A stretch of 64,000 bases of DNA from Syntrophaceae bacterium (GCA_003141195.1 PLLC01000106.1:2745-66744), one strand, 5' to 3'. Shown: positions 289 through 20,986, numbered from the stretch's first letter. Program-made: numbers and translations. The notes: generated by a model not told the origin, from the letters alone.

Positions 289-313
289 GGGGACAGATTT
301 CAAATCTGTCCCC
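289..313. repeat. 25-nt perfect palindromic element GGGGACAGATTTCAAATCTGTCCCC (copy 1)
   Basis: Read directly. 12-bp arms around a single central base. Intergenic, between two minus-strand genes. Confidence 0.9.
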
Positions 314-3206: not shown

Positions 3207-4600
3207 TGGACCGGAATCGCTCGGACCTCTTCGATAGCTGGGAATCCTATCGCAAGACCTGCCGGGAACTATCCCACGCCATGGCAAGCCGGACAGGCGC
3301 TCAGGTCCGCCTGGCGAAGAAAACCTCGAACCTGTTCCGTACGCGCAGGGAAGCCGCAGCCAAAAATCTCGACGTCCGACGCCTCCACAGGGTCATCGAA
3401 ATCGATCCGGAAAGCAGGATCGCCGAGGTGGAAGGGATGACCACCTTCGAGGACTTCGCCGACGCGACTCTCCTGAAAGGCCTGCGTCCACCCGTGGTTC
3501 CGGAGCTGAAGACCATCACCGTCGGTGGTGCGGTCTCCGGGCTTGGCATCGAAGCGTCATCGTTCCGGCATGGGCTCGCGCACGAGATGGTCGAAGAGAT
3601 GGATATACTCTGCGGCGATGGAACCATCCGCATCTGCCGTCCCGACAACGAGAACGCAGACCTCTTCCATGCCATCCCGAATTCCTACGGATCCCTCGGC
3701 TACATCCTTCGCCTGCGCGTGAAGCTCCTGCCTGCAAGTCCGTTTGTAAAGCTCACCCACCAGCGCTTCTTCGATCGCATATCATTCCTGTCTGCAATTG
3801 AAGCAGCCTGCGCACAGAGCCCTCATACACCGGACTTCGTCGAGGGGGTCGCCTTCACACCCGACGACTTTGTGCTCACCATGGCACGACTCAGCCATGA
3901 ACGTGGCCCGGTCAACGATTATAAAGGCCTGCAGATCTACTACCAATCCCTGCGGCATCGTACGGAGGATCTCCTGACCATGAGGGATTTCTTCTGGCGG
4001 TGGGATCCGGACTGGTTCTGGTGTTCCCGGAGTTTTGGCATGCAGAATCCCCTGCTGCGCCGTCTGCTTGGACACTGGATGCTGCGTTCCAGCTCCTACT
4101 GGAAGATCCAATCCCTGTACCGGAAATGGAAGGTTGCGGAACGAGGATATGCAATCCGTAAAGCCCTGCATTTGCCCATCGAACTGTTCGAACCGGTGAT
4201 CCAGGATGTCGAGATCCCCATTGAGAAGTCTCTGGAATTCCTCGAGTTCTATTTTCGCGAGATTGACATCCGGCCTTGCTGGATCTGCCCGATGCGCCCC
4301 CTTGAGGCAGCCAGGAACTGGACGCTCTACGCCATGGAACCAGGGGCACTCTACCTGAACTTCGGGTTCTGGGGAAGTGTCCGAACCTCTTCAGACAAGG
4401 CCGACGGACATTTCAACCGCCGCATAGAACGTATCGTGCAGGAGCTCGGTGGCCGCAAGTCGCTCTATTCGACCTCCTTTTTCCCCGAAGACGAATTCTG
4501 GCGCATATACAACGGTGATGCCTACCATAAGCTCAAGTTGAAATTCGATCCACAGGGCGCCTTCCGCAACCTGTATCAGAAGACGGTTCTTGGGCATTGA
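3206..4600 (+). CDS. FAD-binding (PCMH/FAD_binding_4-type, DWF1/DHCR24-like) oxidoreductase
   Basis: ORF 3047..4600. The ATG at 3206 overlaps the cfa stop (TGATG, 3204-3208); an alternative ATG lies at 3188. Motifs: RVIEIDPESRIAEVEGMTTFEDFADATL, TITVGGAVSGLGIEASSFRHGL, ADLFHAIPNSYGSLGYILRLRVKL. Confidence 0.85.
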   Translation: MDRNRSDLFDSWESYRKTCRELSHAMASRTGAQVRLAKKTSNLFRTRREAAAKNLDVRRLHRVIEIDPESRIAEVEGMTTFEDFADATLLKGLRPPVVPELKTITVGGAVSGLGIEASSFRHGLAHEMVEEMDILCGDGTIRICRPDNENADLFHAIPNSYGSLGYILRLRVKLLPASPFVKLTHQRFFDRISFLSAIEAACAQSPHTPDFVEGVAFTPDDFVLTMARLSHERGPVNDYKGLQIYYQSLRHRTEDLLTMRDFFWRWDPDWFWCSRSFGMQNPLLRRLLGHWMLRSSSYWKIQSLYRKWKVAERGYAIRKALHLPIELFEPVIQDVEIPIEKSLEFLEFYFREIDIRPCWICPMRPLEAARNWTLYAMEPGALYLNFGFWGSVRTSSDKADGHFNRRIERIVQELGGRKSLYSTSFFPEDEFWRIYNGDAYHKLKLKFDPQGAFRNLYQKTVLGH

Positions 4601-7900: not shown

Positions 7901-9336
7901 TGGTCGTTGAAGTTGGGCGGACGCTTCCCTCGGAAGGCCGTCTCAGCAATATCATCCATTTTCAACCCCAACGTCTCGTGGGCCGATTCTTCCAGGAATG
8001 AGCCGGTGCCCGCCGAACACGCTTCGTTCATGGCGTAGTCGGAGGGGACAGAATTGATGATATAGGTGTATTTGGCGTCCTGGCCGCCGATTTCAAAAAT
8101 GGTGTCCACCTGGGGATCAAAATAGACGGCGGCCGTGGCGTGGGCAACGATCTCGTTGATGACCCCTTCCGTGAGGGCGTGCAGCCCCGCAATCTGCCTG
8201 CCCGAGCCGCAGACGCCCAAGCCTTCGATGCGGATCGCTTGCGGATCGACCTTCTGCCGGACCTGCTCGAAAAGCGAGCGATAGCATTGGCGGGAGGCGC
8301 CCACCGGATCTCCGTTAGTGCGCAAATATACGGAAACCAAAAGGGCATGGTCCGATCGGCGCACGAGCACGGCTTTTGTGGTGGTGGAGCCGACATCGAG
8401 ACCCAGAACGCAGGCATCCCCAGGCCGGATGGTATCCCGTTCCATCGTTTTGAACTCAACCTGGCCGGCGAAATCAGTCAGTGGCGGCAGGCTGTCGAAG
8501 GAGGTTGCTCTCGTGACAAAGAGCTCGGCAAACCCTGGAAAACGAGCGGTTTCATGGGACAGACCCCATAGGGCAGCCCCCAGGGCTTCCAGATAGGATG
8601 CCGTCTCCGGCACGACCAGGCCGGGGATCTCCTGGCGGAGGTATTCGATCATCATGCGGTTCTGGGCCGCACCGCCGATGATCATGATGTTGCGCCGCTC
8701 CACCTTTTTCAACAGCTCCAGGATCTTGTCGGCCATCATTTTACACAGGCCGGCGGTCACCTGCGGCTTGGGAATACCCTTGTTGGTGGCATGGGTGCAG
8801 TCCGACTTGCAAAACACCGAGCAGCGGCCCGACACGTGATATGGTGTCTCCACTCCCGCCCATTGCGCAGCCTCCTCCAAGCTCACATTCATGCGGCGCA
8901 ACTGCTGCAAAAAAAACTCGCCGGTCCCGGAGGCGCACTTGTTGCCGGTGACCACGTTTGTGATGCGTCCCGACCGATTCAGCACATACACCATGAAAGT
9001 TTCGCCGCCGGCTGATACGATGGCTGGGCAGTCGATATCGGGTGGCTTAACGAAGGCGTAGGCACACTCCACCGCCTCCGGTTCCGGGATGGACGTTAAA
9101 TTGACGAACCGTCGGAACTTGCGGCCGGTGGCGGTAATCCGATCGAAGAACTGTATATCCACGCCTTTGAGAGCCTGAACCAGGCAGCGTTTGGGATCGC
9201 CCTCATGAGCCTGAAGGGAATGGGCGCTAATGTGTGGTGAAAGCACCCGATTGTCTTCCAGTTCCTGCTCCACTTGAACGAGAGAAATAGTCGATGCCCC
9301 TAAGCACAGACCAAGCGACTTCAGTTTGACGGCCAT
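4957..9336 (-). CDS. Acyl-CoA dehydratase activase-related fusion protein (two BadF/BadG/BcrA/BcrD-type ATPase modules plus a DUF2229/HgdB-like C-terminal region)
   Basis: ORF 4957..9345 (GTG); first ATG at 9336. Module 1: LGLCLGASTISLV...GNKCASGTGEFF...GRCSVFCKSD. Module 2: LGLDVGSTTTKAVLV...EIGGQDAKY...NEACSAGTGSFLEE...NDQCAAFIGSD. Then a Cys-rich linker (TCRGGKEKCDRRCPI...GGACNRYYN) and a long dehydratase-subunit-like tail. Confidence 0.85.
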   Translation of the reverse strand: MAVKLKSLGLCLGASTISLVQVEQELEDNRVLSPHISAHSLQAHEGDPKRCLVQALKGVDIQFFDRITATGRKFRRFVNLTSIPEPEAVECAYAFVKPPDIDCPAIVSAGGETFMVYVLNRSGRITNVVTGNKCASGTGEFFLQQLRRMNVSLEEAAQWAGVETPYHVSGRCSVFCKSDCTHATNKGIPKPQVTAGLCKMMADKILELLKKVERRNIMIIGGAAQNRMMIEYLRQEIPGLVVPETASYLEALGAALWGLSHETARFPGFAELFVTRATSFDSLPPLTDFAGQVEFKTMERDTIRPGDACVLGLDVGSTTTKAVLVRRSDHALLVSVYLRTNGDPVGASRQCYRSLFEQVRQKVDPQAIRIEGLGVCGSGRQIAGLHALTEGVINEIVAHATAAVYFDPQVDTIFEIGGQDAKYTYIINSVPSDYAMNEACSAGTGSFLEESAHETLGLKMDDIAETAFRGKRPPNFNDQCAAFIGSDIKNAIHEGVAREDIASGLVYSICMNYSNRVKGNRPVGEKIFMQGGVCYNSAVPLAMGALIGKPIIVPPEPGLMGAFGVALEVQKRIEEGLMAAKPFDLETLARREVAYGKTFTCRGGKEKCDRRCPIAVIQVEGQKYPFGGACNRYYNIRRNVHYDTERLDLVRIRQKLIFQTYGAPPDKEKVRSYKGRVGLNRSFLVNTYYPLYSNFFNELGFDVVLPDHPSQEGIDQCGAPFCYPVELAHGFICSLLESENPPDFLFLPHFKAIPGQNEGSSSQSQVCPLVQGETFYLQTAFSGKLGQLIGGGARLLTPLLDLSGGIESAEEPLIGTARHMGVGRRAAREAFAVALQKQRDCFLNMKETGRRMLSELESDPDKFGVVIFARPYNGFTGEAHMGIPHKFATRGIPVIPIDFLDLEQERSKRHMYWGMGDLILKAACFVEKHPQLFGAYITNFSCGPDSFIISYFRDIMGRKPSLTLELDSHTADAGIETRVEAFLDIVRSYRQLMARRLISPRQRTFNPARVILENGSTRVVTSSGKTLALTDPRVEILIPSMGKFGTEAFAATLRGCGCNARALRENDKAILKLGRANTSCKECLPLILTTGTLLSYINNGRRKGEILVYFMPTGAGPCRFGQYAVYMEDLIRRLGIPDVALLSLSSDNSYSGMDKHFERHAWWAVVVSDVMEDIRSMLLANSVDPIAAGAIYSDEWRKILLALEKGNFDILTAQLSECADRLSAIPLKRSVHSVAVITLTGEIFVRRDALSRQYLTEYLAEKGFATVCAPVSEWVYYCHYLTDRGFNLDHLTIAQKFKLKIRNLFQRHYEKRIKSILSKSGLVHAEALDIAGIIKNASPYISLALPGEAILTVGGALSEVVTHSCGVIAIGPFGCMPNRISEAILGEIMTAGKKLATDPTNQKLQEVLTDIDDLPFLAIESDGSPFPQLINAKLETFLLRADRFHQYMMATNYNCLKNH

Positions 9337-9665
9337 GGATAACACCTTTTGCCAGAGCGGGCACTTAAAAAACTGTCTTAGATAAATTCTATCAGAAATT
9401 TGTTCCTTACGGGAAGTTTTATTGTCTCGGCAACTAATGAGATTTTTGGTTGGTAATCGTTACACGCAGGCGAGATCAAGGGCGTAAACCCTCTTCCCGA
9501 ATTCGTTAATTGACAGATTGTGATAAGTATTGCTAAAAGAGCGCATGATTACAACCTGAAAGTGATGCTGCTTGCTATCGGGCTTTGATCTCATCCTTTT
9601 TCACGAAGTACGCATCAACCGGATGAACCAGTTTTTTGAACCACCCGAAGAAAGGAGACCGGAAC

Positions 9666-10570: not shown

Positions 10571-11233
10571 TCATCCGGTGCAGTCAGCGGAAATGAGGGT
10601 AGCGGGATCGAAGGCGAAGGCCGCAAATCGGCCGTCGTGGCTGAGGCTGACCTCTGCGGCGAGCAGGTCTCCGCGGAAAAGGACGCGGGGAGCGCCGAGA
10701 CCGTCGGGGTTTTTGACGACGGACAGATCGCCAACAGGACAATCGAGACGGCGCGCGATCTCCCGGAGGAGCGCCCCCCGGACGAAGGCCGAGGGATTTA
10801 CGTCGCTCCCCGTCCCTTCTCGTAGCTCCACGTGCTGACAGATCCTCTCGATATCTTCCTCCGATCCCGCCGCCAGCGCATGAACCCAGTCTGCCGTTAG
10901 GGCGATCCGGAGCACCAGTTCTCCCCCGGGGGTGATCACTTTCCCTGCGAGACGGGCGGCTGTTCCCGCCGCATTCCCCGTATCCAGAACCACACGGTAT
11001 TGCCGGGGGATCGAACAGACCGCCGGATCAGCGCGGCTGACGGCCTTGTAGGCCGCCTCCTTCGCCGCCCAGAACGCCCAGAGGAGCCCGTCGGGTCGCG
11101 CCGCCCCGGCAATGATAGCCCGTTCCTCCGCGGTGAAGACGCGGCCGCAGAAGCGGCTGTCCCCGCTCTTGTCGAGGTTGCCGGGCGCCGCGAGATCGAC
11201 GACGTCGTTACCCACGGGAGGCAAAGCAGGCAT
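10571..11233 (-). CDS. 4'-phosphopantetheinyl transferase
   Basis: ORF 10571..11287, trimmed to the ATG at 11233 (GGAGG upstream). Motifs VGNDVVDL, FTAEERA, WAAKEAAYKA, SLSHDGRFAAFAF. Confidence 0.8.
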   Translation of the reverse strand: MPALPPVGNDVVDLAAPGNLDKSGDSRFCGRVFTAEERAIIAGAARPDGLLWAFWAAKEAAYKAVSRADPAVCSIPRQYRVVLDTGNAAGTAARLAGKVITPGGELVLRIALTADWVHALAAGSEEDIERICQHVELREGTGSDVNPSAFVRGALLREIARRLDCPVGDLSVVKNPDGLGAPRVLFRGDLLAAEVSLSHDGRFAAFAFDPATLISADCTG

Positions 11234-11948
11234 CCTCCAATGCAGCGAGCCGTTCCACGATCCGCCGCGCATATTCCCGCTGGACACGGAGTCCCCCGCC
11301 GTTCGCCCTTCCCGGATCGAAGACCTCCGCGGTTATCGTGAACCGTTCCCCGAACCGGGGCATCGTCCCGTAGGTCTCCTGCCCGTCGCCCCGGAGATAG
11401 ACGAGCATCACCCGGCAACGGTTGCATTTGTCGATGAAGCGGCCGACGCCGTAGGAGAAGTTCTCCCGGTTTACCCGCCCCGAATGCGACCTCCCCCCTT
11501 CCGAAAAAATCATCAGCCCCTGCCCCCAATCCAGAACCCGGCAGCACTTTTCGAGGAGCCGATGGAGCCCTTCGCGGCTTCCGCCCCGGTCGACTGGCAG
11601 GCACTTCAGCAAATAGCACAGGAGGGCGATGAAGGGGTTCTGCTGAAAATTCTTCCGTTCCGGCAGGTTCCAGGGAACCCGCCGGAAATGGAGGATATGA
11701 TCCGCCAGGGAAGCCATCCCATAGCTGATCACGAACGAATCGATCAGGGTCAAGTGGTTCGGGCAGACAAGCCAAGGCCCCTCGTGCTCCCGGTACATGC
11801 GCTTGACTTCGTTCCGGATCCGCTTCAGGTCGCGGATGCGATAGCCCATCAGGCGGACGAAGAGGAAGCAGAGCGGTGCCGTCGCGAGGACGGCGATTCG
11901 CCCCAGAACGTACTGCAACCCGAGAAGAAAACGCTCCCGCTTTTCCAT
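11208..11948 (-). CDS. PlsC/LPLAT-family acyltransferase (1-acyl-sn-glycerol-3-phosphate acyltransferase-like)
   Basis: ORF 11208..12056, trimmed to the ATG at 11948 (MEKRERFLLG...). HX4D motif CPNHLTLIDS, then LMIFSEGGRSHSG. N-terminal hydrophobic segment. 26-nt overlap with the PPTase start. Confidence 0.8.
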   Translation of the reverse strand: MEKRERFLLGLQYVLGRIAVLATAPLCFLFVRLMGYRIRDLKRIRNEVKRMYREHEGPWLVCPNHLTLIDSFVISYGMASLADHILHFRRVPWNLPERKNFQQNPFIALLCYLLKCLPVDRGGSREGLHRLLEKCCRVLDWGQGLMIFSEGGRSHSGRVNRENFSYGVGRFIDKCNRCRVMLVYLRGDGQETYGTMPRFGERFTITAEVFDPGRANGGGLRVQREYARRIVERLAALEDACFASRG

Positions 11949-11956
11949 GACCGGCT

Positions 11957-12205
11957 TTACGCCGCCTTCTGCTGGATCAGAAGTACCGCGTCCCCGATCG
12001 TCGCGATCCGATCGGCCTCGTCGTCGTCGATCATGGTCCCGAACACGTCCTCGCACTTGATGATGATGTCCACGAGCCTCGCCGAATTGACCCGCAGGTC
12101 CTTGAGGATGTGGGTTTTGGGCGTCGCCTTCTCCAGAAGGGCCGAATCCTTCACGTACCCCCGCAGGATGTCGATGATCTTCTTCGTAATCTGTTCTTCA
12201 CTCAT
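11957..12205 (-). CDS. Acyl carrier protein (dedicated, divergent)
   Basis: 82 aa. Phosphopantetheine-attachment region KDLRVNSARLVDIIIKCEDVFG (Ser in the helix-2 DSL-equivalent position). Acidic small protein between the KS and the acyltransferase. Confidence 0.8.
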   Translation of the reverse strand: MSEEQITKKIIDILRGYVKDSALLEKATPKTHILKDLRVNSARLVDIIIKCEDVFGTMIDDDEADRIATIGDAVLLIQQKAA

Positions 12206-12245
12206 GATCTTTCCTCTCTCTTTCTGTTTGTTGAAAAAGTCCCAT

Positions 12246-13523
12246 TCATGGTTCCCATTTTCTGAAAATAAGACAGCTGTTCACATCGCCGAAGCCGAAG
12301 CCGGCCTTGGCCACGACCTTGAGATCCGGACAGGCTACGGCGGAATGAGGGATCCTCCGTTCGTAGGGGGCGATCTCCGGATGGAGATCCCCGCAGTTCA
12401 GCGACGGATGTACAAATCCGTCCCGGAGCTGCAGGACGACGGCCACGCATTCGATTGCGCCGGCCGCCCCCAGGCAGTGTCCGATCATCGACTTGGTCGA
12501 GTTGATCCAGGGAAAATCTTCCGGACCCCGCTCCAGGGCGGCCGACCAGTTCTTCACCTCTATCGGATCGGCGTAGGTTGCCGTCAGGTGGCCGTTGATG
12601 GCGTCGATCTCGCGAGGCGAAATCCCCGCGTCGGCCACGGCCCCGCGGATGCACCGCTTCACCCCCTCCGGGTTCGGCGCGGTGATGGTGCCCCCCATCC
12701 GGTGGCCGCCGCAGTTCACCATCCCGCCCAGCACCTCGGCGTAGATCCGCGCTCCCCGCGACCGGACCGATCCCAATTCCTCCAGGAGAAGGAACGCCCC
12801 GCCCGCACCGGGGACAAAACCGGCGGCGGTCGCGCTCATCGGCCGGGAGGCCTCTTCCGGCCGGTCGTTGAACTTCCGGCAGATCACTCGCATCGCATCA
12901 AAACCGGCCCAGATGTAAGGCGAGGCCCCCTCCGAGCCGCCCGCCAGCATCCGGGTGGCCAGTCCGAGCCGGATGCGCGCCACCGCTTCAATGACTGCCT
13001 CGTTTCCGGTGCTGCACGCCGAGGAATTCGAAGTCACCTGGTTTCCCAGGGCCAGCAGTCCCGCGACCCGCGCGCTCGTCCCGCTGTTCATCACCTGCTC
13101 GACGATCCTGCTCCCCATACGCCGGACCTTCCCTTCGTTCACCATCGGAACCACTGTCCGGGCGATCGTGTCCATCCCGCCGATCCCTGAGCCGGCGATT
13201 ACCCCGGTCTCCCAATCCACGCGGTCGTCTTCGGCCTCGGGGACGGCGAAACCCGCATCGGTCCAGGCATCCACGGCCGCCACGGAGGCATAGCCGATGT
13301 TGTCGTTGAGCGACAGGAGCTTCTCATGATCGAAATAGCGCTGCCGTATCGCATCGAATCCCTCCGGAACGCCCCCGACCTGGCAGCCGAAGTTCAACGC
13401 CGCCAATTCCGGAATATGACGGATACCCGAACGCCCTTCCCGCAGGGCCTGTGCGAATACATCCAGTCCGTGGCCGTTCGGTGCGACCACCCCCATCCCC
13501 GTAACGACGACCCTGCGTTTCAT
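12246..13523 (-). CDS. Beta-ketoacyl-ACP synthase (FabF/KAS II-like)
   Basis: 425 aa. VVVTGMGVVAPNG, active-site Cys SSACSTGNEA, His motifs NGHLTATYADP and TKSMIGHCLGAAGAIE. Confidence 0.9.
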   Translation of the reverse strand: MKRRVVVTGMGVVAPNGHGLDVFAQALREGRSGIRHIPELAALNFGCQVGGVPEGFDAIRQRYFDHEKLLSLNDNIGYASVAAVDAWTDAGFAVPEAEDDRVDWETGVIAGSGIGGMDTIARTVVPMVNEGKVRRMGSRIVEQVMNSGTSARVAGLLALGNQVTSNSSACSTGNEAVIEAVARIRLGLATRMLAGGSEGASPYIWAGFDAMRVICRKFNDRPEEASRPMSATAAGFVPGAGGAFLLLEELGSVRSRGARIYAEVLGGMVNCGGHRMGGTITAPNPEGVKRCIRGAVADAGISPREIDAINGHLTATYADPIEVKNWSAALERGPEDFPWINSTKSMIGHCLGAAGAIECVAVVLQLRDGFVHPSLNCGDLHPEIAPYERRIPHSAVACPDLKVVAKAGFGFGDVNSCLIFRKWEP

Positions 13524-14062
13524 AATCTTGTCTCCTCTTTGACCCGCCCCGCGAGGATCGGCGCGGGACCCCGTTCCTTCTGTTCCATAAACTTTTCCAA
13601 CGGGACCCCTTTCCCCGCAAGGATGCCGGAACAGACCTCCTCGCCGTCCGGCCGCGTCATGATGCAGTTGACCTTGAGCTGATTTCCGCGGAAATAAACC
13701 TTCCGTCCCGTAACCCGGACGAACTCGCCGGGGCAGACCACGCCGCTGAACTCCACCTTTTCCATGAGCGTAAACAACGTGACGGGATCCTCGATCTTCT
13801 TCTCCCCCTCCCTTCGGAGCAGGTTCAGGTAGAGGCCGAAGGCCACGACGCCCGTCTGGGCCATCGTCTCGATCAGAATGACCCCCGGCGTGATGGGAAG
13901 GCCCGGAAAATGGCCCGGGTAGAAATATTCATCGCTGCGGAAGCGGTAGACGCCGACGACGTGTTCCTCGTCCAGTTCCAGGATCTCCTCGATGAACCGG
14001 AAAGGGTGCCGCTGGGGTACCATCTCCAGAATCCGCCCCCGCAGGATGCGATCAGCCTCCAT
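13520..14062 (-). CDS. FabZ-like 3-hydroxyacyl-ACP dehydratase (hotdog fold)
   Basis: ORF 13520..14074. I prefer the ATG at 14062 (GGAGG 5 nt upstream). PQRHPFRFIEEI...YFYPGHFPGLPITPGVILIETMAQ. The stop overlaps the KS start (ATGA). Confidence 0.85.
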   Translation of the reverse strand: MEADRILRGRILEMVPQRHPFRFIEEILELDEEHVVGVYRFRSDEYFYPGHFPGLPITPGVILIETMAQTGVVAFGLYLNLLRREGEKKIEDPVTLFTLMEKVEFSGVVCPGEFVRVTGRKVYFRGNQLKVNCIMTRPDGEEVCSGILAGKGVPLEKFMEQKERGPAPILAGRVKEETRL

Positions 14063-14780
14063 ACAGTCCTCCATTCACATGAATCACCGTTCCGGTAATG
14101 TACGAGCCCGCCGTGGCCAGAAAACCGACCATCTGCGCAACCTCCTCGGGCCGCCCCATCCGGCCGAGGGGAATCCGGTCGAGGATGCCCGCCCGGACCC
14201 CTTCGGGCAGGCGGGAGGTCATCTCCGTTGCGATGAACCCGGGGGCGACCGAATTGACCAGGATGTTCCGACCCCGGAGCTCGGCAGCCAGCGATTTCGT
14301 CAGCGCGTCCATCGCTGCCTTTTCCATTGCGTAGGGAATCTGGCCGGCGTTCCCCGTATGGCCGACGACGCTCGAAATGTTGATGATCCGGCCGCTATCC
14401 GCGCGGAGCATGTATTGCCTGAGGACGCGCTTCGTCAGGTACCAGGTGCCCCGCAGCAGGGTGCGCTGCATGTCGAACTGTTCGATCCGCATCCGCTGCA
14501 TGTCGGCGTCGATTGCGACCCCGGCGTTGTTCACGAGGACGTCGAGGCGATCCGTCTGCGCCTTCAGCCGTTCCATCAAGGCATCCACCTGATCGATTGT
14601 GGCCAGGTCCGCCGGAAGGAGGAATCCGTCGCCGATCTCCGCAAGCAGGGAAACCGCGGCCGCCGCGCTCGTCCGGTAGTGGATCCCTACGCGAAAACCC
14701 TTCGCCGCCAGCTCCCGCACGCAGGCCGCCCCGATCCCCGTTGCGCCTCCCGTCACCAAAGCCACCTTCTTTTCACTCAT
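14052..14780 (-). CDS. 3-oxoacyl-ACP reductase (FabG-like SDR)
   Basis: ORF 14052..15404, trimmed to the ATG at 14780 (MSEKKVALVTGGATGIGAA...). NNAG, catalytic S...YxxxK (ISSVVGHTGNAGQIPYAMEKAA), PGFIATEM. Confidence 0.9.
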   Translation of the reverse strand: MSEKKVALVTGGATGIGAACVRELAAKGFRVGIHYRTSAAAAVSLLAEIGDGFLLPADLATIDQVDALMERLKAQTDRLDVLVNNAGVAIDADMQRMRIEQFDMQRTLLRGTWYLTKRVLRQYMLRADSGRIINISSVVGHTGNAGQIPYAMEKAAMDALTKSLAAELRGRNILVNSVAPGFIATEMTSRLPEGVRAGILDRIPLGRMGRPEEVAQMVGFLATAGSYITGTVIHVNGGLYGG

Positions 14781-14806
14781 TGAGCAACTCCCTTTTGCTC
14801 TCTCCC

Positions 14807-14831
14807 GGGGACAGATTTCAAATCTGTCCCC
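14807..14831. repeat. 25-nt palindromic element GGGGACAGATTTCAAATCTGTCCCC (copy 3), intra-operonic
   Basis: Identical to copy 1. Lies in the 53-nt gap between the FabA-like stop (14834) and the FabG-like start (14780). Confidence 0.9.
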
Positions 14832-14833
14832 CA

Positions 14834-15427
14834 CTATTTTCGATCCATCCGACCGCCGACGGCGTTCGCCGACCGACGGGGGTAGTCCGGATAGGCGATT
14901 CCCTGAAAGACGCCCGTCCGCGCCCCATGGATCTCGGCGATCTCCCCGCCGTCGACGGAGACCCGCCCCTCGCCGACGACGAGGCTCGCTCCCGATTCCT
15001 TGAGATGGGTAAAGCGCCGCACCTTGATCTCGTAGCGCACGAGCCGGTTGAAGGGCCGGATCTGGCCGCTGAAGACCACCTCGCTGCAACCGAGCGCCCG
15101 GCCGGAACCGAGCGCCCCCCGCCAGACGCAAAAGAAACCGAGAAGCTGCCAGATGGCGTCCACGCAGAGGCAGCCGGGCTGGACCGGATCGCCGGGCATG
15201 TGGCACTGGAAGTACCAGGCATCGAGGCGAATATCCTGCTCGGCCGTGATCCTCCCCTGACGGCCATCCCTCCGGATTTCGAGGATCCGGTCCGCCATCA
15301 AAAAAGGCGGCGCCGGCAAGCGGGCCACAAAGCCTCCCGGGGGGTCTTCCACCAGGGTCCCGTAGGCAAATGCGATGAGCTCCTCCTGTCCGAAATGGGA
15401 ACACTCCTGAAACTCTTCGTAGGTCAT
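14834..15427 (-). CDS. FabA-type 3-hydroxyacyl-ACP dehydratase (possible dehydratase/isomerase)
   Basis: ORF 14834..16141, trimmed to the ATG at 15427 (MTYEEFQE...). FabA signature LPAPPFLMADRI...DAWYFQCHMPGDPVQPGCLCVDAIWQLLGF...GRALG..EVVFSGQIRP. Confidence 0.85.
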   Translation of the reverse strand: MTYEEFQECSHFGQEELIAFAYGTLVEDPPGGFVARLPAPPFLMADRILEIRRDGRQGRITAEQDIRLDAWYFQCHMPGDPVQPGCLCVDAIWQLLGFFCVWRGALGSGRALGCSEVVFSGQIRPFNRLVRYEIKVRRFTHLKESGASLVVGEGRVSVDGGEIAEIHGARTGVFQGIAYPDYPRRSANAVGGRMDRK

Positions 15428-16434
15428 GACGCCCTCCGATTTTCTTCGACGGCGAGAAGCAGATGAACCCACGTCAGGCCGGCGCCTACGAGGCAAATGG
15501 CCACGCGGTCGCCGGGAGACAGCTCTTCCCAGTGCCGACTCAGAACCGCGGGCGCTCCGGCGCAGCCCGTATTCCCTAATTCGTCCACGTTGTACCAGTG
15601 CTGCTCCTCCGGGATCGCCGCCCGTTCGCAGACGGTCCTGAGGGCCATCAGGTTCGCCTGGTGGCCGATGAAACGGAACCGCTCGCCATTGCCATTGCCG
15701 TTGCCCGGAACGGACATGAGGCAACGGACGGACTCCGTCATCCGGCGGATGGCGAACCCCTGGACGGCATGGCCGTCCTGACGGAAATGGCCCATCGGGG
15801 GAATATTCACCTTCTCCCAGGCCGAGGCGTTCGTCCCGCAACGGGATACCACAAAGGCCGCCCGCGCCTTCACCGAGGCCGAAACGATGGCGGCGGCGCT
15901 CCCGTCGCCGAACAGAACGGCTGTGGAGCGGTCGCTGAAGTCGATAGCGCGGGTGATATTCTCCGGCTGGACGATGAGTACGTATGGGGGAAGTCGGTCC
16001 GCCGCCATCCGGCTGAGCAGATCGATCTGCATCCCGAAGCTCGTGCAGGCCGAATTCACGTCGAGACAGGGGGCGTCGATCCCCAGTTCCGCCGCCACCG
16101 TGGCCGCCTCCGCCGGCGTCGAGCAGGAGGGGGCGCAGCAACCCGAGATGACAAGGCCGATGTCGTCAGGTCTGAGGCCCGCCCGGTCGAGGGCCATCCG
16201 CGCCGCGGCCGCAGCGGTCTCGGCGTTCCGGTAGAGGCTCGCCTCATGGGCCGCACGCGGATCGTGGTTCTTCGTCCGGCGGATATAATCCAGGGAGAGG
16301 ACCGTCCGTCGCTCGCGGATCCCCACGCGTTCGAGGATCCAGGCCTCGTCGGTCCCGATCCCGAGCTCCTCCAGAAACCGGTTTGTGATGACGTTCTCCG
16401 GATGAAAATGGCCGATGCCGTGCAGGTAGAGCAT
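15424..16434 (-). CDS. 3-oxoacyl-ACP synthase III (FabH-like initiating KS)
   Basis: ORF 15424..16710, trimmed to the ATG at 16434 (MLYLHGIGHFHPEN...). Cys-His-Asn triad contexts DVNSACTSFG, FIGHQANLMAL, ELGNTGCAGAP. ATGA overlaps at both ends. Confidence 0.85.
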   Translation of the reverse strand: MLYLHGIGHFHPENVITNRFLEELGIGTDEAWILERVGIRERRTVLSLDYIRRTKNHDPRAAHEASLYRNAETAAAAARMALDRAGLRPDDIGLVISGCCAPSCSTPAEAATVAAELGIDAPCLDVNSACTSFGMQIDLLSRMAADRLPPYVLIVQPENITRAIDFSDRSTAVLFGDGSAAAIVSASVKARAAFVVSRCGTNASAWEKVNIPPMGHFRQDGHAVQGFAIRRMTESVRCLMSVPGNGNGNGERFRFIGHQANLMALRTVCERAAIPEEQHWYNVDELGNTGCAGAPAVLSRHWEELSPGDRVAICLVGAGLTWVHLLLAVEENRRAS

Positions 16435-17633
16435 CAGACCAACTCCCGGCCGATGATCATGTTCTGGACCTCGCGGACCCCTTCGTAGATGTCGATAATC
16501 TGGGCGTCCCGGATGAGCTTCGAGATCTCGTATTCCGAGATGAAGCCGTATCCGCCGTGGAGGTGCAACCCCTCCGTCGCGCAGAAGACGGCCGCCTCTG
16601 CGGCCAGATTCTTGGCGAGCGAGGCGTAAACGCCCCGATCGGGCGCCCCCTTCTGGACCAGGAAGGCCGCCTTCATCAGGGCCATCTCCGCCAGTTCGAC
16701 CCGTTTCCACATGGCAACCAAGGTCTCCCGCGCGACGGGCATGTCGCAGATCCGCTGGCCGAACTGGCGGCGCTCCCGCGTGTAGGCCAGGGTGAGGTCC
16801 AGTGCGCGCCGGGCGAGACCGACGCCGATCGCGGCCACCATGGGACGCGCGTAGTCGAGGACGTCGGTGAGGTACTGGAAGCCGAGCCGCCGGTCGCCGA
16901 TGATCTGATCGTTGCTGATCTCAACGTCCTCGAAGGTGACGGTCGCCGTATTGGAGAGGCGCTGTCCCAACTTGTCCTCCGGCTTTCCCGTCACGATCCG
17001 CCCCCCGCATGGAAGCGGGATCTCCCGGCAGGCCTGGGAGCCGGCCTCCGCCGTATCCGGTTCCACGGCCAGCGCGGGGACGACGACGCAGGCGATGAAG
17101 GGCGAAGAGGGTTTGCCGACCTTGCAAAAGACGGTAAACTGTGAGGCAAACGAGGCGTTCGTGATGAAGCATTTCGCTCCGTTGAGCAGGTATTTCCCGT
17201 CCTTTCCTTTCCGAATGGCGGTCATCATGGCGGAGTTGTCTGAACCCGCCCCCGGTTCCGTAAGGCAGAAAGAGGCCAGGAGCGGCCGCTCCACGAAGGG
17301 AACTAAGAAGGACTGTTGCTGCGCCTCCGTACCGTGCATGGCGATCACGGCATTGGCCAGATCATTGCACATGGCCGACGTGGCAATGCCGCTGTCCCCG
17401 TACGAAAGCTCCCGAATGATCAGGGCCGTCGAGATAAGGTCGAGGCTGTAACCCTTGACGGTCTCCGGGATGGAGAGGTTCAGGATGCCGAGGTCCCAGG
17501 CCTTCCGGATGATGTCAAAGGGGAAGGCGTGGCCCTTCTCCAGGGTCATGACACGGGGTGTGATCTCCCGGCCGACGAAACGGCGGACGGTTTCCAGGTA
17601 TTGTTTCTGCTCTTCGCTCAGATTGAAATCCAT
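16434..17633 (-). CDS. Acyl-CoA (or acyl-ACP) dehydrogenase family flavoprotein
   Basis: ORF 16434..18293, trimmed to the ATG at 17633 (MDFNLSEEQKQYLETVRRF...). CLTEPGAGSD, FITNA, RRQFGQ, IYEGVREVQ (catalytic Glu context). Carries an insertion ~VVPALAVEPDTAEAGSQACREIPLPCGG. Confidence 0.85.
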   Translation of the reverse strand: MDFNLSEEQKQYLETVRRFVGREITPRVMTLEKGHAFPFDIIRKAWDLGILNLSIPETVKGYSLDLISTALIIRELSYGDSGIATSAMCNDLANAVIAMHGTEAQQQSFLVPFVERPLLASFCLTEPGAGSDNSAMMTAIRKGKDGKYLLNGAKCFITNASFASQFTVFCKVGKPSSPFIACVVVPALAVEPDTAEAGSQACREIPLPCGGRIVTGKPEDKLGQRLSNTATVTFEDVEISNDQIIGDRRLGFQYLTDVLDYARPMVAAIGVGLARRALDLTLAYTRERRQFGQRICDMPVARETLVAMWKRVELAEMALMKAAFLVQKGAPDRGVYASLAKNLAAEAAVFCATEGLHLHGGYGFISEYEISKLIRDAQIIDIYEGVREVQNMIIGRELV

Positions 17634-17726
17634 GAGAAAACGCCTCGCTCCATTGCCTTTTTCTGTCCCCCGCGCGGGCCGCGGACGTAACAATCCGGTG
17701 CCGCACCGGCCGGTTGCACGGTAATG

Positions 17727-17742
17727 AGCATCAACCGTGCCA
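17727..17742 (-). promoter_or_regulatory. Sigma-54 (-24/-12) promoter candidate for the ACAD/FAS-like operon
   Basis: The reverse strand reads TGGCACGGTTGATGCT. The GG and GC doublets are separated by 10 nt as in TGGCAC-N5-TTGC. It lies 94 nt upstream of the ACAD ATG (17633). An inverted repeat TGCGTAAC-N22-GTTACGCA at 17854-17891 sits about 110-150 bp further upstream. Confidence 0.6.
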
Positions 17743-17943
17743 CAACATTGGATGGGACCGTAGATACCCCAAAAGCACAACCGGGACGGACCGTTGGCGT
17801 TGAACGACGCCGCTTTCGGGAGGGGCTTCCGCCCCGTAGATACGGCCTCCGGGTGCGTAACAACCGGTCGGAGTGCGAAGCCCGTTACGCAGCGCCGCTC
17901 ACCCTTCTTGACTTCCCGACGGGGATTACGGTATGCGTTCCCT

Positions 17944-19437
17944 ATGGAAATTTTCATGCTGACGGCGGTGGGCATCACGGTGTCCGTCGCCCTGATGATC
18001 AATAAGAAGCGGGAGCCACTGCACCTCTCCTTCGCCGCCCTCTGCCTGGCCATCGCCTTCCACAAGGGGGGCGTCTTCTTCAACCCGTTCTTCCATTCCG
18101 GCGCCTGGCTTCTCGTCGAAGGTCTGGGGCTCCTTGCCATCCCCCCCCTCACGATCAAGTTCAGCCGGGACTTCTGTGAGGAGCAGACCCTGCTCCGGAA
18201 GCGGGACGTCCGCAACACGCTCCTGTTCAGCACCGGGTTCGCCGCGGTCCTCTTCACCCCCGTCGCGGGCTGGAAGTACCTGGGGACGTTCATGTACCTC
18301 TACGCGGACGCGGTTTTGCTCCTGTGCTATCTCTCCCTGATTGCCTATGCAAAAAAGAAAGCGGCGGGCGCGGAAAAGAAGCGCATCGTCTACCTCATCA
18401 TCGCCTGCACCGCGGCCATCGCCACCTACAGCATCCCGCCCCTGTTCAACCTGGTCGTCGCCGGCATGCTCTATTTCATCCTGATCATGATCACCCACCC
18501 CCATCTGACGGAGCTCCACGACATCATGACCCGTGCCTTGGTGATCCTGGTCGTCACCCTCTTCACGACCATCGTCTTCTACCTCGTCATCGGCTTCTTC
18601 GGAAAGGGGCCCGCGCCGCCGTTCACGCTCGTCTTCATGGTCTCCTTCCTCATCGTCATCGCCATCGGACCGTTCCAGGTTATCCTGAAACGGCTGCTCA
18701 CGACAATTTACCCCGAGATCAAGGACGTCTTCACCTCGCCCTATGACCTGGACGAGAAGTTGGAGAGGGAAAAGGCGCTCCTTCTGGAGAAGATGGCCCC
18801 CGTCCTCGCCCACGAGATCCGGAACCCCCTCGGTTCGATCAAGGGGGCCGCCCAGGTCCTCCGTTCGGAGGTGGAGGGAGAGGAGCAGCGGAAACTTCTC
18901 GACGTGATCACCGAGGAGGTGAACCGCCTGAACCGGGTTGTCTCGCAGTTTCTCGATTACGCCCGGCCCTACGCGCCGGAGCTCCGCCCGCGACCGATCA
19001 ACGCGGTCATCGAAAAGGCCATGGCCCTCATCGAGGCGGACAGAATTTCGGCCCGTATCCATATCCAGTTGGAGCTCCATCCTCATCTGCCGCCGGTCCC
19101 CATGGATCAGGAACAGATTCACCAGGTGATTCTGAACATCGCCCTCAACGCGATCGAGGCGATGCCGGAGGGCGGCATGCTGACCATCCGGACGTCGCGG
19201 ATCGAAAGCGACGCCGGCGACGCGGTGGGCATTTCCATCCGGGATACGGGTCTGGGAATTCGCCGCGAGGCGCTCAAACAGATCTTCACCCCCTTCTTCA
19301 CGACCAAGGAGCGGGGGGTCGGGCTGGGGCTGGCCGTCTGCCAGCGGATCATCCGGAACCACGGCGGGCGGATCCGGGTGAAGTCGATCCCCGGCCAGGG
19401 GACGATCTTCTACATCCGCCTCGAAACGGTGCGGTAG
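17944..19437 (+). CDS. Sensor histidine kinase with polytopic membrane N-terminal domain
   Basis: ORF 17794..19437, trimmed to the ATG at 17944 (MEIFMLTAVGITVSVAL...). About 7 hydrophobic segments with no large periplasmic loop. H-box LAHEIRNPLGSIKG; ATPase boxes NIALNAIEAM, IRDTGLGI, GVGLGLAVC. Confidence 0.85.
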   Translation: MEIFMLTAVGITVSVALMINKKREPLHLSFAALCLAIAFHKGGVFFNPFFHSGAWLLVEGLGLLAIPPLTIKFSRDFCEEQTLLRKRDVRNTLLFSTGFAAVLFTPVAGWKYLGTFMYLYADAVLLLCYLSLIAYAKKKAAGAEKKRIVYLIIACTAAIATYSIPPLFNLVVAGMLYFILIMITHPHLTELHDIMTRALVILVVTLFTTIVFYLVIGFFGKGPAPPFTLVFMVSFLIVIAIGPFQVILKRLLTTIYPEIKDVFTSPYDLDEKLEREKALLLEKMAPVLAHEIRNPLGSIKGAAQVLRSEVEGEEQRKLLDVITEEVNRLNRVVSQFLDYARPYAPELRPRPINAVIEKAMALIEADRISARIHIQLELHPHLPPVPMDQEQIHQVILNIALNAIEAMPEGGMLTIRTSRIESDAGDAVGISIRDTGLGIRREALKQIFTPFFTTKERGVGLGLAVCQRIIRNHGGRIRVKSIPGQGTIFYIRLETVR

Positions 19438-19481
19438 GAAGACGGAATTTGACGCTCTCGTAAAAAGTCGCAAAAAACATT

Positions 19482-19506
19482 GGGGACAGATTTGAAATCT
19501 GTCCCC
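19482..19506. repeat. 25-nt palindromic element GGGGACAGATTTGAAATCTGTCCCC (copy 4; central base G instead of C)
   Basis: Lies between the HK stop (19437) and the RR start. Followed by a partial extra half-copy, aaatctgttagagctgtccc (19507-19526). Confidence 0.9.
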
Positions 19507-19558
19507 AAATCTGTTAGAGCTGTCCCATCGACTTAAGATATACGAGGGATAGCAGAGA

Positions 19559-20986
19559 ATGGAAATCGCGCGGGAACGAAAGAAAAAGAACGGCACCGGC
19601 ATGAAGGCGGCGAAGATCCTCGTTGTGGACGACGAGCTGAATATGCGATTGGTCCTCAAAGCCATGCTGAAAAAGGAGGGTTATGAGGTGGTCACGGCCG
19701 CGGACGGCCTGGAGGCCCTGAAGATCCTCCGGGAGGAGAAGATCGCCGCCGTCGCCACGGACCTCAAGATGCCGGGGCTCGACGGCATGGGTCTCCTCGA
19801 CCGGATCATGCAGGACGATCCCTCCCTGCCCGTCATCATTCTCACCGCCCATGGCACCGTGGCAAACGCCGTAGACGCCCTGAAGAAGGGGGCCTTCGAT
19901 TACCTCACCAAACCCTTCGAACAGGATGAACTCAAGACGGTCATCCTGAAGGCGGTCAAGACCCGGCAACTCGGCGACCGCGACCTCTCGGCGGCGGCTG
20001 GCGATGCCGATCCCGACCGAATCGTCGGGGAGAGCTGCCGCATGGCCGAGATTCATGAGATCGTCCGGAAGGTCTCCCCCGCGATGACTACCGTACTCAT
20101 CACAGGGGAGACGGGGACGGGCAAGGAGCTGATCGCCCGCGCCATCCACCGGCACAGCGCCCGGAAAGAACAGCCCTTCATCAAGATCAACTGCGCCGCC
20201 ATTGCGGAGAACCTCGTGGAAAGCGAGCTCTTCGGATACGAAAAGGGGGCTTTCACCGGCGCCGTTGCCGCGAAACCGGGGAAGTTCGAGCTGGCCCACC
20301 GGGGAACCCTCTTCCTGGACGAGGTCGGGGAGATCCCGCGGGACATGCAGGCGAAGCTCCTCCAGGCAATCCAGGACCAGAGCTTCGAACGCGTCGGCGG
20401 CCTGAAGACGATCTCGGTGGATGTGCGTCTGATCGCCGCCACGAACCGAAATCTCGTGCAGGAGGTTCGGGAGGGAAAATTCCGTGAGGACTTCTTCTAC
20501 CGCCTGAACGTCTTCCCCATACAGGTCCCGGCGCTCCGGGAGCGGCCCGAGGACATTCTTCCCCTGGCGGACCATTTTCTCACGAAGTTCAACCGGAAGC
20601 TGGGCAGGCAGGTCAATGGTCTCGATCCGGAGGTCCGGGACTGCCTCCTCGCCTACCCTTGGCCGGGGAACATCCGGGAGCTGGAACACCTCATCGAACG
20701 GATGGTTCTGATGGCGGAGGAACCCCTCCTTACGATGGCGCTCGTCCCACCGGAGGTCGCGCAGGCCGCGCGGGAACCCCGCCCGGCAACGTCAGCTCTT
20801 GCGGAAACGTCCGGACGCGACGCGCTGAGAAGCCACATGGAGGAGATGGAAAAACAGATTATCGCCCGCTGCATCGAGGAGTGCGACGGCAACGTCACAC
20901 GAGCGGCCGAGCGGCTGGGGCTGAGCAGGAAGGGCCTCCAGCTCAAGATGATCAAGCACCGACTCCGGAAGCGGGAAGAGGGATAA
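19559..20986 (+). CDS. Sigma-54-dependent response regulator (NtrC family bEBP)
   Basis: Receiver domain (ILVVDDE...TDLKMPGLDG...LTKPF). AAA+ domain with Walker A GETGTGKE and the sigma-54 contact loop GAFTGA (YEKGAFTGAV). C-terminal HTH (NVTRAAERLGLSRKGLQLKM). Alternative start at ATG 19601 (MKAAKILVVDD). Confidence 0.9.
   Translation: MEIARERKKKNGTGMKAAKILVVDDELNMRLVLKAMLKKEGYEVVTAADGLEALKILREEKIAAVATDLKMPGLDGMGLLDRIMQDDPSLPVIILTAHGTVANAVDALKKGAFDYLTKPFEQDELKTVILKAVKTRQLGDRDLSAAAGDADPDRIVGESCRMAEIHEIVRKVSPAMTTVLITGETGTGKELIARAIHRHSARKEQPFIKINCAAIAENLVESELFGYEKGAFTGAVAAKPGKFELAHRGTLFLDEVGEIPRDMQAKLLQAIQDQSFERVGGLKTISVDVRLIAATNRNLVQEVREGKFREDFFYRLNVFPIQVPALRERPEDILPLADHFLTKFNRKLGRQVNGLDPEVRDCLLAYPWPGNIRELEHLIERMVLMAEEPLLTMALVPPEVAQAAREPRPATSALAETSGRDALRSHMEEMEKQIIARCIEECDGNVTRAAERLGLSRKGLQLKMIKHRLRKREEG

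Follow-up and report, generated by a model that had tools for sequence, protein, structure and literature searches.

The 64,000-nucleotide stretch of DNA analysed here, from a Syntrophaceae bacterium (GCA_003141195.1 PLLC01000106.1:2745-66744; hereafter the window, with positions counted from its first nucleotide), carries an operon of nine co-directional minus-strand genes at 10571-17633. These genes encode enzymes of the type II route to fatty acids (FAS-II) together with an acyl carrier protein (ACP), an acyltransferase and a phosphopantetheinyl transferase, and they lie beside divergently transcribed genes for a sensor kinase and a sigma-54 activator. We read the operon as an inducible accessory branch of FAS-II, which would build a special, probably cis-unsaturated, acyl chain on the private ACP and install it in a membrane lipid. 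On the gene content and its conservation, we give this reading an even chance.

Gene content of the operon

Open reading frames (ORFs) were listed and translated, and the products were scanned with Pfam and NCBIfam. From first to last, the nine genes are:

16434-17633, minus strand: flavoprotein of the acyl-CoA dehydrogenase (ACAD) family, 399 aa, first gene; PF02771, PF02770 and PF00441, catalytic Glu in IYEGV
15424-16434, minus strand: FabH-like initiating ketosynthase (KAS III), 336 aa; PF08545 and PF08541, with Cys (NSACTSF), His (GHQAN) and Asn (GNTGCAG)
14834-15427, minus strand: FabA-type 3-hydroxyacyl-ACP dehydratase/isomerase, 197 aa; CHMPGDPVQPGCL...VDA, with His and Asp active-site residues
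14052-14780, minus strand: FabG-like 3-ketoacyl-ACP reductase (ketoreductase, KR), 242 aa; Ser-Tyr-Lys, Y-x3-K
13520-14074, minus strand: FabZ/ApeI/ApeP-like 3-hydroxyacyl-ACP dehydratase (DH), 184 aa (180 aa from the ATG at 14062); PF07977, GHFPG...ETMAQ, His/Glu
12246-13523, minus strand: elongating beta-ketoacyl-ACP synthase (KS), 425 aa; Cys-His-His
11957-12205, minus strand: private ACP, 82 aa; LRVNSARLVD, motif KDLRVNSARLVD in place of the canonical DSLD
11208-11948, minus strand: acyltransferase of the PlsC/lysophospholipid acyltransferase (LPLAT) family, 246 aa, with an N-terminal hydrophobic segment; PF01553, HX4D (NHLTLID) and FSEGGRS
10571-11233, minus strand: 4'-phosphopantetheinyl transferase (PPTase), 220 aa, last gene; PF01648, E=1.2e-11

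A first-pass annotation of the window had proposed nine minus-strand genes with these identities; all are present, and their catalytic motifs are readable in the translations. The ATGA overlaps that it placed at 15424-27 and 13520-23 were the same on re-reading. The 26-nt overlap at 11208-33 was also recovered, as was the 11-nt overlap at 14052, which becomes 23 nt if the upstream ATG is used. The junction between the ACAD and KAS III genes at 16434, given as ATGA, is actually TGATG with an overlap of 1 nt. The sole sizeable gap inside the operon is one of 53 nt between the FabA and KR genes. Public gene callers agree with our gene lengths for the ACP, acyltransferase and PPTase on identical contigs, and give the KS 425 aa on one contig and 416 aa on the other. 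The exact window acyltransferase was found again in dozens of metagenome assemblies. As the first-pass annotation had stated for the locus, no FabI/K/L/V-type reductase is encoded there; neither this enzyme nor FabD was found in the locus or in the scanned ORFs of the rest of the window.

Only FabA passes its NCBIfam housekeeping cutoff, all other proteins of the operon falling below theirs. The FabA-type assignment made earlier stands: the protein reaches the model of the bifunctional dehydratase/isomerase (NF003509, 187.9 bits for a cutoff of 124), and it matches FabA structures at 118-136 bits but FabZ at 32 bits. The KAS III scores 151-185 bits on FabH models with cutoffs of 249-292 (NF006829, 185 versus 249), the KR 240 bits on TIGR01830 (cutoff 298), and the FabZ-like DH 74-77 bits on FabZ models (cutoffs 113-155). 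The KS is equidistant from FabF and FabB, with 299 bits on TIGR03150 (cutoff 494) and 244 on KAS I, and with about 198 and 177 bits for the FabF and FabB structures in the PDB. The best NCBIfam score of the ACP is 45.6 bits for a cutoff of 70, and its identity with E. coli AcpP is 31% over 58 residues. Across phyla, its motif D-L-K/R-V-N-S-A-R-L-V-D shows essentially no variation among 90 loci. The acyltransferase belongs to a narrow subfamily: at a threshold of E<=1e-3, a search among 1.84 billion sequences yields only 384 clusters (50% identity). Its residues N64, H65 and D70 do not vary in an alignment of 54 sequences, and its relation to the PlsC of T. maritima is weak (E=1.5e-4).

The ACAD is closest to the medium-chain ACAD (MCAD, 242 bits). 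Its best NCBIfam match is AcrC, also at 242 bits, far under the AcrC cutoff of 640. The catalytic Glu is kept, and IYEG(V/T)REVQ is conserved among orthologues. The middle domain contains an insertion that had been put at about 30 residues and that we measured at about 20-22; its sequence is variable among orthologues. Alignment with the other ACAD of the window gives 31% identity and a gap of 20 aa. We rejected two further ideas on this protein. The two Cys residues of the insertion are not conserved and therefore do not argue for a metal site. Nor is the ACAD likely to be a tailor of the KAS III primer, because five related loci (L037, L043, L055, L065 and L070) keep the ACAD without a KAS III, so that it is not tied to the priming ketosynthase.

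Conservation in the Syntrophales

An alignment of the acyltransferase subfamily, scanned against 185,579 species genomes, retrieved at least 570 relatives, the best 80 of which are all from Syntrophales (Syntrophaceae, Syntrophus and Smithella/Smithellaceae). The window acyltransferase itself has many relatives, at 67-86% identity, in organisms named Syntrophales, Syntrophaceae or Syntrophus. More than 80 species-level loci of Syntrophales carry the module, and in L001-L003 the entire 11-gene arrangement (the nine genes, the kinase and the activator) is kept with unrelated flanks. We counted gene presence by tblastn of the eleven window proteins in the 58 loci showing both the ACAD and the acyltransferase:

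Genes present among the 58 loci: KS 58, ACP 58, FabZ-like DH 57, KR 56, PPTase 56, KAS III 53, FabA 38

The ACAD was seen in every Syntrophales locus in which that end of the operon is visible (58/58). The KS is the best conserved protein across loci (70-95% identity), with the ACAD next (67-92%). FabA is absent from Smithella-type loci, five of which also lack the KAS III. The core consists of ACAD, KR, DH, KS, ACP, acyltransferase and PPTase; FabA and KAS III are dispensable. With all enzymes but FabA below the cutoffs, a divergent ACP and a conserved syntenic unit, the earlier view of a dedicated, non-housekeeping ACP-dependent module is strengthened. The same is true of the proposed terminal acyltransferase, since hand-off to the LPLAT is the invariant end of the predicted pathway.

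The earlier statement that the cluster has no FabD is true of the window locus, and FabD is also absent from the closest relatives (L001-L008). It nevertheless describes a lineage-specific state, because in 33 of the 53 loci with that DNA visible, ORF clustering showed that the operon opens with a FabD gene, which directly precedes the ACAD end of the module on the same strand. This cluster-linked FabD matches PF00698 and reaches 251 bits on TIGR00128 (cutoff 261). In the window lineage, malonyl transferase must therefore come from elsewhere.

Several accessory genes occur in related loci. Smithella-type operons have, between FabD and ACAD, a gene similar to the 5S subunit of transcarboxylase and to the alpha subunit of oxaloacetate decarboxylase (NF006761, 646 bits; for example at 3543-4958 in L067). 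It was seen in L043, L045, L048, L051, L053, L063, L065, L067, L069, L070 and L080, and hints at a private malonyl supply by transcarboxylation. The position after the PPTase gene is a variable redox slot, none of whose gene types occurs in the window. It contains a two-domain FMN_red flavin reductase in 12 loci (1934-3334 in L038 and 11 others), a single-domain FMN_red/flavodoxin-like protein in three (e.g. 11554-12129 in L003), an alcohol-dehydrogenase-type protein of the medium-chain dehydrogenase/reductase family in L001 and L002, and a further FabG-like short-chain dehydrogenase/reductase (SDR) in 19 (11496-12263 in L067 and 18 others). Smithella-type loci are among those with the two-domain flavin reductase and among those with the additional SDR. 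A gene for a cNMP-binding GGDEF diguanylate cyclase lies shortly downstream of the operon in 16 loci (11786-12736 in L004 and 15 others), and also at 19070-20014 in L092. In the window, PAS-GGDEF and PAS-HD-GYP-type genes occur near the operon at 26391-28514. In the isolate Syntrophus gentianae (L089, 11541-14434), phospholipid-transport genes similar to MlaE and MlaD come after the acyltransferase gene, in place of a recognisable PPTase.

The family outside the Syntrophales

Relatives outside the Syntrophales were reached by a search with a representative of the acyltransferase subfamily at 37% identity, which gave seven contexts. The family is present in Omnitrophica, Spirochaetia and metagenome-assembled genomes (MAGs) of the FCB group/"Bacteroidetes". 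All seven contexts have a collinear DH-KS-ACP-acyltransferase core and keep the ACP motif NSARLVD, and the PPTase is next in six of them. The full form, SDR-KAS III-FabA-DH-KS-ACP-acyltransferase-(PPTase), was found in five. Six of the seven clusters open with the SDR, a protein of about 315 residues whose best model is FabL (108-117 bits, versus about 70-87 for FabG) and which has a Y-x6-K spacing in the motif G-Y-A-A-V-S-A-A-K. The Y-x6-K spacing marks enoyl reductases of the FabI/FabL kind, whereas Y-x3-K marks ketoreductases. None of the seven operons encodes an ACAD or a KR. Conversely, the FabL-like Y-x6-K SDR is in no Syntrophales locus examined, and the only SDR of the window operon, the KR, has Y-x3-K. 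The two arrangements, ACAD plus KR and FabL-like SDR, are mutually exclusive in all loci examined.

These patterns suggest that the archetype of the family has its own enoyl reductase but relies on the cell for FabG and FabD, and that in Syntrophales the ACAD took the slot of the FabL-like reductase and a KR was added. Members outside the Syntrophales that lack KR and FabD must borrow housekeeping enzymes, which marks the family as accessory to FAS-II. The first-pass annotation had reasoned that, lacking an enoyl reductase, the operon makes a polyene or hydroxy chain. This inference is weakened because relatives outside the Syntrophales encode a FabI/FabL-type reductase where Syntrophales have the ACAD.

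Some of these clusters have additional genes. In a Spirochaetia MAG (L085, 11424-16258), a FabD-reductase-DH-KS-ACP-acyltransferase-PPTase cluster lies tail-to-tail with a birA-bioA-bioD-bioF-bioB operon. In L087 (6636-9525), a UbiA-family prenyltransferase and a YfdI_N membrane protein are inserted between KS and ACP, and in L088 (7132-7884) an S-adenosylmethionine (SAM) methyltransferase is inserted between FabA and DH. These insertions suggest that the lipid product is further elaborated in the latter two lineages. PLD and RND/MMPL genes are also neighbours of clusters outside the Syntrophales.

Regulation

The region between the operon and the divergent kinase gene, and the two regulatory genes, contain the following features:

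17727-17742, minus strand: sigma-54 -24/-12 promoter TGGCACggttgATGCT, with GG at -24, GC at -12 and the correct spacing
17854-17891: 8-bp inverted repeat TGCGTAAC-N22-GTTACGCA, a candidate activator binding site (upstream activating sequence) about 110-150 nt upstream of the -24 element
17944-19437, plus strand: histidine kinase, 497 aa, starting with MEIFML; HisKA and HATPase_c, start set by alignment with L001 and L003
19559-20986, plus strand: NtrC-family sigma-54 activator; REC, Sigma54_activat (PF00158, E=1.9e-71) and HTH_8 (PF02954)

The promoter was recognised by reading the 310-nt intergenic region, and it is conserved in A1. Its 5' end (17742) is 109 nt upstream of the start codon of the ACAD gene (17633). 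A strict TGGCAC-N5-TTGC pattern misses it because the -12 box is ATGC. In 41 of 55 related loci the same element precedes the first operon gene by 60-113 nt, against a background of 0.006 per 350 nt; among 2.9 Mb searched there were 49 matches, 41 of them at the promoter position. Where FabD is present the promoter precedes it, and the element persists in many loci without an adjacent divergent kinase. For 20 of 46 instances of the promoter element, the pattern GCGTA-N(25-29)-TACGC occurs 123-235 nt further upstream (background 0.007 per 300 nt). No sigma-70-like site was found in the intergenic region between operon and kinase. A scan of 9-22 kb with Rfam returned no RNA family, hence no riboswitch in the leader.

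The first-pass annotation had described a divergently encoded kinase with a transmembrane sensor and an NtrC-type bacterial enhancer-binding protein, and both were found with the domains that it named. Almost all of the N-terminal 270 or so residues of the kinase are transmembrane, with about 7-8 hydrophobic segments before HisKA; its core is AtoS/ZraS-like, below the cutoff. The activator is AtoC-like (480 bits for a cutoff of 714). In 29 of 49 loci the kinase gene adjoins the operon in divergent orientation, and the activator is conserved beside the kinase in related loci. With these genes standing next to a conserved sigma-54 promoter and to the inverted repeat upstream of it, the suggestion of conditional expression gains ground, and sigma-54 control of the operon is supported by the sequence patterns.

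Proposed pathway

In the reading that we favour, the membrane-embedded kinase, once triggered, would activate the NtrC-type regulator, which would bind the upstream inverted repeat and open the sigma-54 promoter before the ACAD gene. The PPTase would convert the private ACP to its holo form, the KAS III would prime the chain and the KS would extend it with malonyl units, these being loaded by a FabD encoded elsewhere (window lineage) or in the operon (most relatives). The KR would then reduce the 3-keto group, and the FabZ-like and FabA-type enzymes would dehydrate the product, with FabA able to channel an intermediate of medium length towards a cis-3 double bond. The ACAD would perform the redox step on the enoyl thioester, most likely reductively, and so replace a FabI/FabL-type reductase. 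Finally, the finished chain would not be released: the LPLAT would pass it on from the private ACP to an acceptor lipid of the membrane, resulting in membrane remodelling on demand. We infer the chemistry of all these steps from the protein families, and likewise the binding of the activator to the repeat and the signal that triggers the kinase. The finished chain would probably be monounsaturated in lineages with FabA, where a cis-unsaturated product is expected because the invariant pair formed by dehydratase and KS follows the branch-point logic of classical anaerobic synthesis of unsaturated fatty acids, for which the fabI-fabN-fabO operon of E. faecalis is a precedent (PMC9671860). Lipid-related neighbours, i.e. 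the MlaE/MlaD genes of S. gentianae and the PLD and RND/MMPL genes of other relatives, fit a role in membrane lipids.

The direction in which the ACAD works is the step on which the readings diverge. The protein is most likely a stand-in for the reductase; otherwise it would be an acyl-ACP dehydrogenase. The reductive direction is favoured because the ACAD displaces a Y-x6-K reductase by position, because it is retained in loci without FabA or KAS III, because flavin-reductase (FMN_red) genes adjoin the operon in at least 12 loci, and because ACAD-fold enoyl-CoA reductases exist in anaerobes, AcrC being the best NCBIfam match. A bolder extension, which we advance tentatively as possible but on the unlikely side, is that the ACAD represents a class of enoyl-ACP reductase that is neither SDR nor FabK, that it displaced a FabL-like enzyme, and that the module run by sigma-54 and the kinase is the anaerobic counterpart of desaturase-based membrane adaptation. 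The electrons might then be supplied by a flavin, Etf or ferredoxin partner, and organisms living at the thermodynamic limit would in this way not waste the large potential drop from NADH to the enoyl group.

Several points weigh against the proposed branch. We know of no ACAD-family enzyme shown to be an enoyl-ACP reductase, and the known relatives that act on carrier proteins are dehydrogenases. No Etf gene was seen in the locus or in the scanned ORFs of the rest of the window, and no other obvious electron donor either. That the ACAD and the FabL-like SDR occupy equivalent positions hints at a shared function without proving it. FabA is missing from 20 of the 58 loci, and an unsaturated product therefore cannot be general. 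Finally, no second fab set was found within the window or the 1.44 Mb of related loci.

Alternative explanations

The strongest competitor keeps the operon and reverses the ACAD. Acting oxidatively as an acyl-ACP dehydrogenase, it would restore a trans-2 bond in a saturated medium-chain acyl-ACP, which FabA or the FabZ-like enzyme would isomerise and the KS extend, or it would form a 2-enoyl end product as MbtN does; enoyl reduction would be left to a housekeeping reductase. In its favour are the similarity to medium-chain ACAD, with the catalytic Glu kept, and the position of the ACAD gene in the window, two genes upstream of FabA. Natural-product pathways offer well-known acyl-ACP dehydrogenases of the ACAD family, and FabX provides a precedent for acyl-ACP dehydrogenation that feeds unsaturated fatty acid synthesis (PMC8626469). 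However, FabA makes trans-2/cis-3 intermediates without such backtracking, the ACAD is kept in the 20 loci that have no FabA, and its slot is held by a Y-x6-K reductase in other phyla. Oxidation would also call for an electron acceptor, an awkward requirement in a strict syntroph. We consider this alternative unlikely, while regarding it as a serious one.

Three further explanations concern the nature of the whole cluster. The first is that it is a synthase of pimeloyl-ACP, the biotin precursor, of the kind described in Desulfovibrio vulgaris. Composition is similar, and the taxonomic setting, anaerobic Desulfobacterota, is the same (PMC10102598); in addition, the Spirochaetia cluster in L085 abuts bioB-bioF-bioD-bioA-birA. 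That linkage is restricted to L085: bio genes adjoin the cluster neither in the window nor in any other of about 95 loci. The LPLAT is an invariant partner that has no use in pimelate synthesis, control is by sigma-54 and a two-component system rather than BirA, the gene order differs, and the FabA-type enzyme and KAS III are outside the Desulfovibrio set. The restriction of the linkage to one locus and the invariant LPLAT led us to reject biotin as the principal reading, and we think it very improbable.

An equally slight chance attaches to a lipid-attached conjugated polyene, similar to aryl polyenes or flexirubin, made by iteration of KS, KR and DH for want of a dedicated NAD(P)H enoyl reductase. 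An LPLAT and a private ACP also occur in aryl-polyene clusters (ape of E. coli CFT073), which counts in its favour, and the precomputed Pfam matches of DH orthologues are to the ApeI-like and ApeP-like families (PF22818 and PF22817). The KR reaches 190 bits on the flexirubin FlxB model, but this is below its FabG score and far below the cutoff of 340. The operon has a single KS with no chain-length-factor partner, and the window has no adenylating or aryl-starter enzyme, second ACP, LolA-like, MMPL or glycosyltransferase set. Moreover, operons of other phyla have a Y-x6-K enoyl reductase, and polyene assembly has no use for a core ACAD.

It is also highly doubtful that the operon represents the organism's housekeeping fatty acid synthase with its genes in an unusual order. 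The strong conservation of KS and ACAD, the near-cutoff score of the cluster-linked FabD, the completeness of the set with FabD if the ACAD reduces, and the failure to locate another fab set in the loci searched all speak for it. Against it stand the scores of ACP, KS, KAS III, KR and FabZ, all under the housekeeping equivalog cutoffs, and an ACP without DSLD, with E. coli AcpP detecting nothing by tblastn at 1e-3 in the window and 89 loci (1.44 Mb of loci). So does a strictly activator-dependent sigma-54 promoter. A private PPTase and a private acyltransferase are not housekeeping features, and the set is incomplete in the window (FabD) and in other lineages (KR, KAS III or FabA). Two other searches bear on a second fab set: the secondary matches of cluster proteins in the loci are restricted to the downstream SDR, and a search with the cluster-linked FabD gave only FabDs of the cluster type (at least 56% identity), the one context viewed (P0403) being the operon again.

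Other features of the window

The 53-nt gap between the FabA and KR genes is filled by the following element:

14807-14831: perfect palindrome similar to repetitive extragenic palindromic (REP) elements

In L001 the FabA and KR genes abut and the palindrome is absent, and close relatives have no gap at this position. A perfect palindrome of 23-25 nt, GGGACAGATTT(C/G)AAATCTGTCCC, occurs three times in the window (290-312, 14808-14830 and 19483-19505), for an expectation of 0. The copies occupy intergenic gaps, including those between FabA and KR and between kinase and activator, and there is a T-run on the strand that is antisense to the local genes. This suggests a small dispersed REP-like element or an antisense terminator.

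Just downstream of the operon, at 4957-9345 on the minus strand, is a gene for a 1462-aa fusion of BcrAD_BadFG and DUF2229 ("CoA enzyme activase"), also present on the identical public contigs. A cyclopropane-fatty-acyl-phospholipid synthase gene (CMAS, 280 bits) at 1977-3206, plus strand, is followed by a FAD_binding_4 oxidoreductase gene (3047-4600, plus strand). The CMAS gene adds a further function that modifies acyl chains, some 7 kb away from the operon, and its product would need unsaturated substrates if it acts on cis double bonds. Further away, the region 50362-55362 encodes an AMP-binding acyl-CoA ligase, a cupin/helix-turn-helix (HTH) regulator, a canonical ACAD (379 aa, without the insertion) and a protein similar to glycerol-3-phosphate dehydrogenase. 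It may be a separate set for acyl-CoA catabolism or lipids.

Significance

Dedicated ACP-dependent lipid lines, such as AcpXL, the aryl polyenes and the pimelate route of Desulfovibrio, each make a distinctive molecule of the membrane or a cofactor. The family described here is widespread in anaerobes, where at least 570 species-level genomes encode its acyltransferase subfamily. Syntrophales are key syntrophs in the methanogenic breakdown of fatty acids, aromatics and alkanes, and their module is among the best conserved loci that we saw, wired to a membrane-embedded sensor. Solving the product could reveal a new membrane lipid or biomarker, and solving the system could show how strict anaerobes adjust membrane unsaturation on demand. 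Whether an ACAD can act as an enoyl-ACP reductase matters for the range of targets of FabI-directed antibiotics and for the energetics of making lipids.

Comparison with known systems

The closest experimentally studied analogue is the extended bio cluster of D. vulgaris (DVU2560-2563 and DVU1220), a proposed pimeloyl-ACP synthase shown genetically (PMC10102598). Like the operon, it has a specialised ACP, a KS, a KR, two dehydratases of the FabZ fold and no canonical enoyl reductase, and it requires a flavoprotein (PMC10102598). The comparison is one of composition. The D. vulgaris cluster is bracketed by bioB, bioF, bioD and bioA, differs in gene order, lacks sigma-54 or two-component control, and has no acyltransferase, PPTase, KAS III, FabA-type enzyme or ACAD. 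No bio genes were found in the window or in the Syntrophales loci, and L085 is the only locus that adjoins them. In E. faecalis, fabI-fabN-fabO form a separate mini-operon with an enoyl reductase, a dehydratase/isomerase and a KS, which constitutes the unsaturated branch of FAS-II (PMC9671860). The reductase-FabA-DH-KS logic of the family archetype is of this kind; unlike the family, the E. faecalis operon works with the housekeeping ACP and acyltransferases and has no private ACP, PPTase, LPLAT or ACAD.

Other systems resemble the ACAD step. H. pylori FabX is a flavoenzyme that acts at the alpha,beta position of a carrier-bound acyl chain and feeds unsaturated fatty acid synthesis (PMC8626469), but it is a FabK-like enzyme with FMN and [4Fe-4S], not an ACAD, and it is oxidative. 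MbtN, TcsD and PigA/RedW are ACAD-type dehydrogenases working on acyl chains bound to carrier proteins; they are also oxidative, and belong to siderophore and polyketide pathways rather than to an operon of FAS-II enzymes plus LPLAT. Bcd/EtfAB, CarC and AcrC have the ACAD fold and reduce enoyl thioesters in strict anaerobes. In contrast to the proposed ACAD step, they use CoA esters, serve energy metabolism and work with Etf, and the window has no Etf genes.

The likeness to aryl-polyene and AcpXL clusters that the first-pass annotation had proposed does not hold, as the defining features of both are lacking. Ape and flexirubin clusters share with the operon one or more private ACPs, FabZ-fold dehydratases of the ApeI/ApeP family, a FabG-like KR and an LPLAT for linking the product to a lipid; the combination of ApeI/ApeP-type dehydratase, LPLAT and private ACP is present in the operon. 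However, ape clusters have a KS paired with a chain-length factor, an aryl-adenylating enzyme, a thioesterase and export by LolA-like and MMPL proteins, and they perform no enoyl reduction. In the operon, a single FabF/B-type KS accompanies a single KAS III, with no chain-length-factor or second-KS pair. Genes for an aryl-starter adenylating enzyme, thioesterase, LolA-like protein, MMPL or glycosyltransferase are absent from 9.4-21 kb of the window, and none is conserved in 83 loci. The rhizobial cluster acpXL-fabZXL-fabF2XL-fabF1XL-lpxXL likewise combines a private ACP with its own DH and KS, and with a dedicated acyltransferase, by which a special acyl chain is placed in a membrane lipid. 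The rhizobial cluster differs in having an acyltransferase of the LpxXL (lipid A) type, two FabF and an alcohol dehydrogenase, and in lacking ACAD, KAS III, FabA and PPTase. The window operon contains no LpxXL-type acyltransferase, FabF pair or alcohol dehydrogenase: its acyltransferase is of the PlsC type (PF01553) and its KS is single.

For the regulation, DesK/DesR of B. subtilis offer an analogy, with a purely transmembrane kinase sensor that controls a system of acyl-chain unsaturation. There is no sequence relationship with the kinase and activator of the window. DesK has five transmembrane segments, DesR is of the NarL type and the promoter depends on sigma-A, whereas the kinase of the operon has about eight segments, and its partner is NtrC-type and acts with sigma-54. 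In the literature that could be searched, we found no description of this operon family. The family is a dedicated ACP-dependent lipid assembly line with four distinguishing features: a core ACAD in place of the SDR enoyl reductase, an invariant basic motif in the ACP, a narrow LPLAT subfamily and, in Syntrophales, control by sigma-54 and a membrane kinase.

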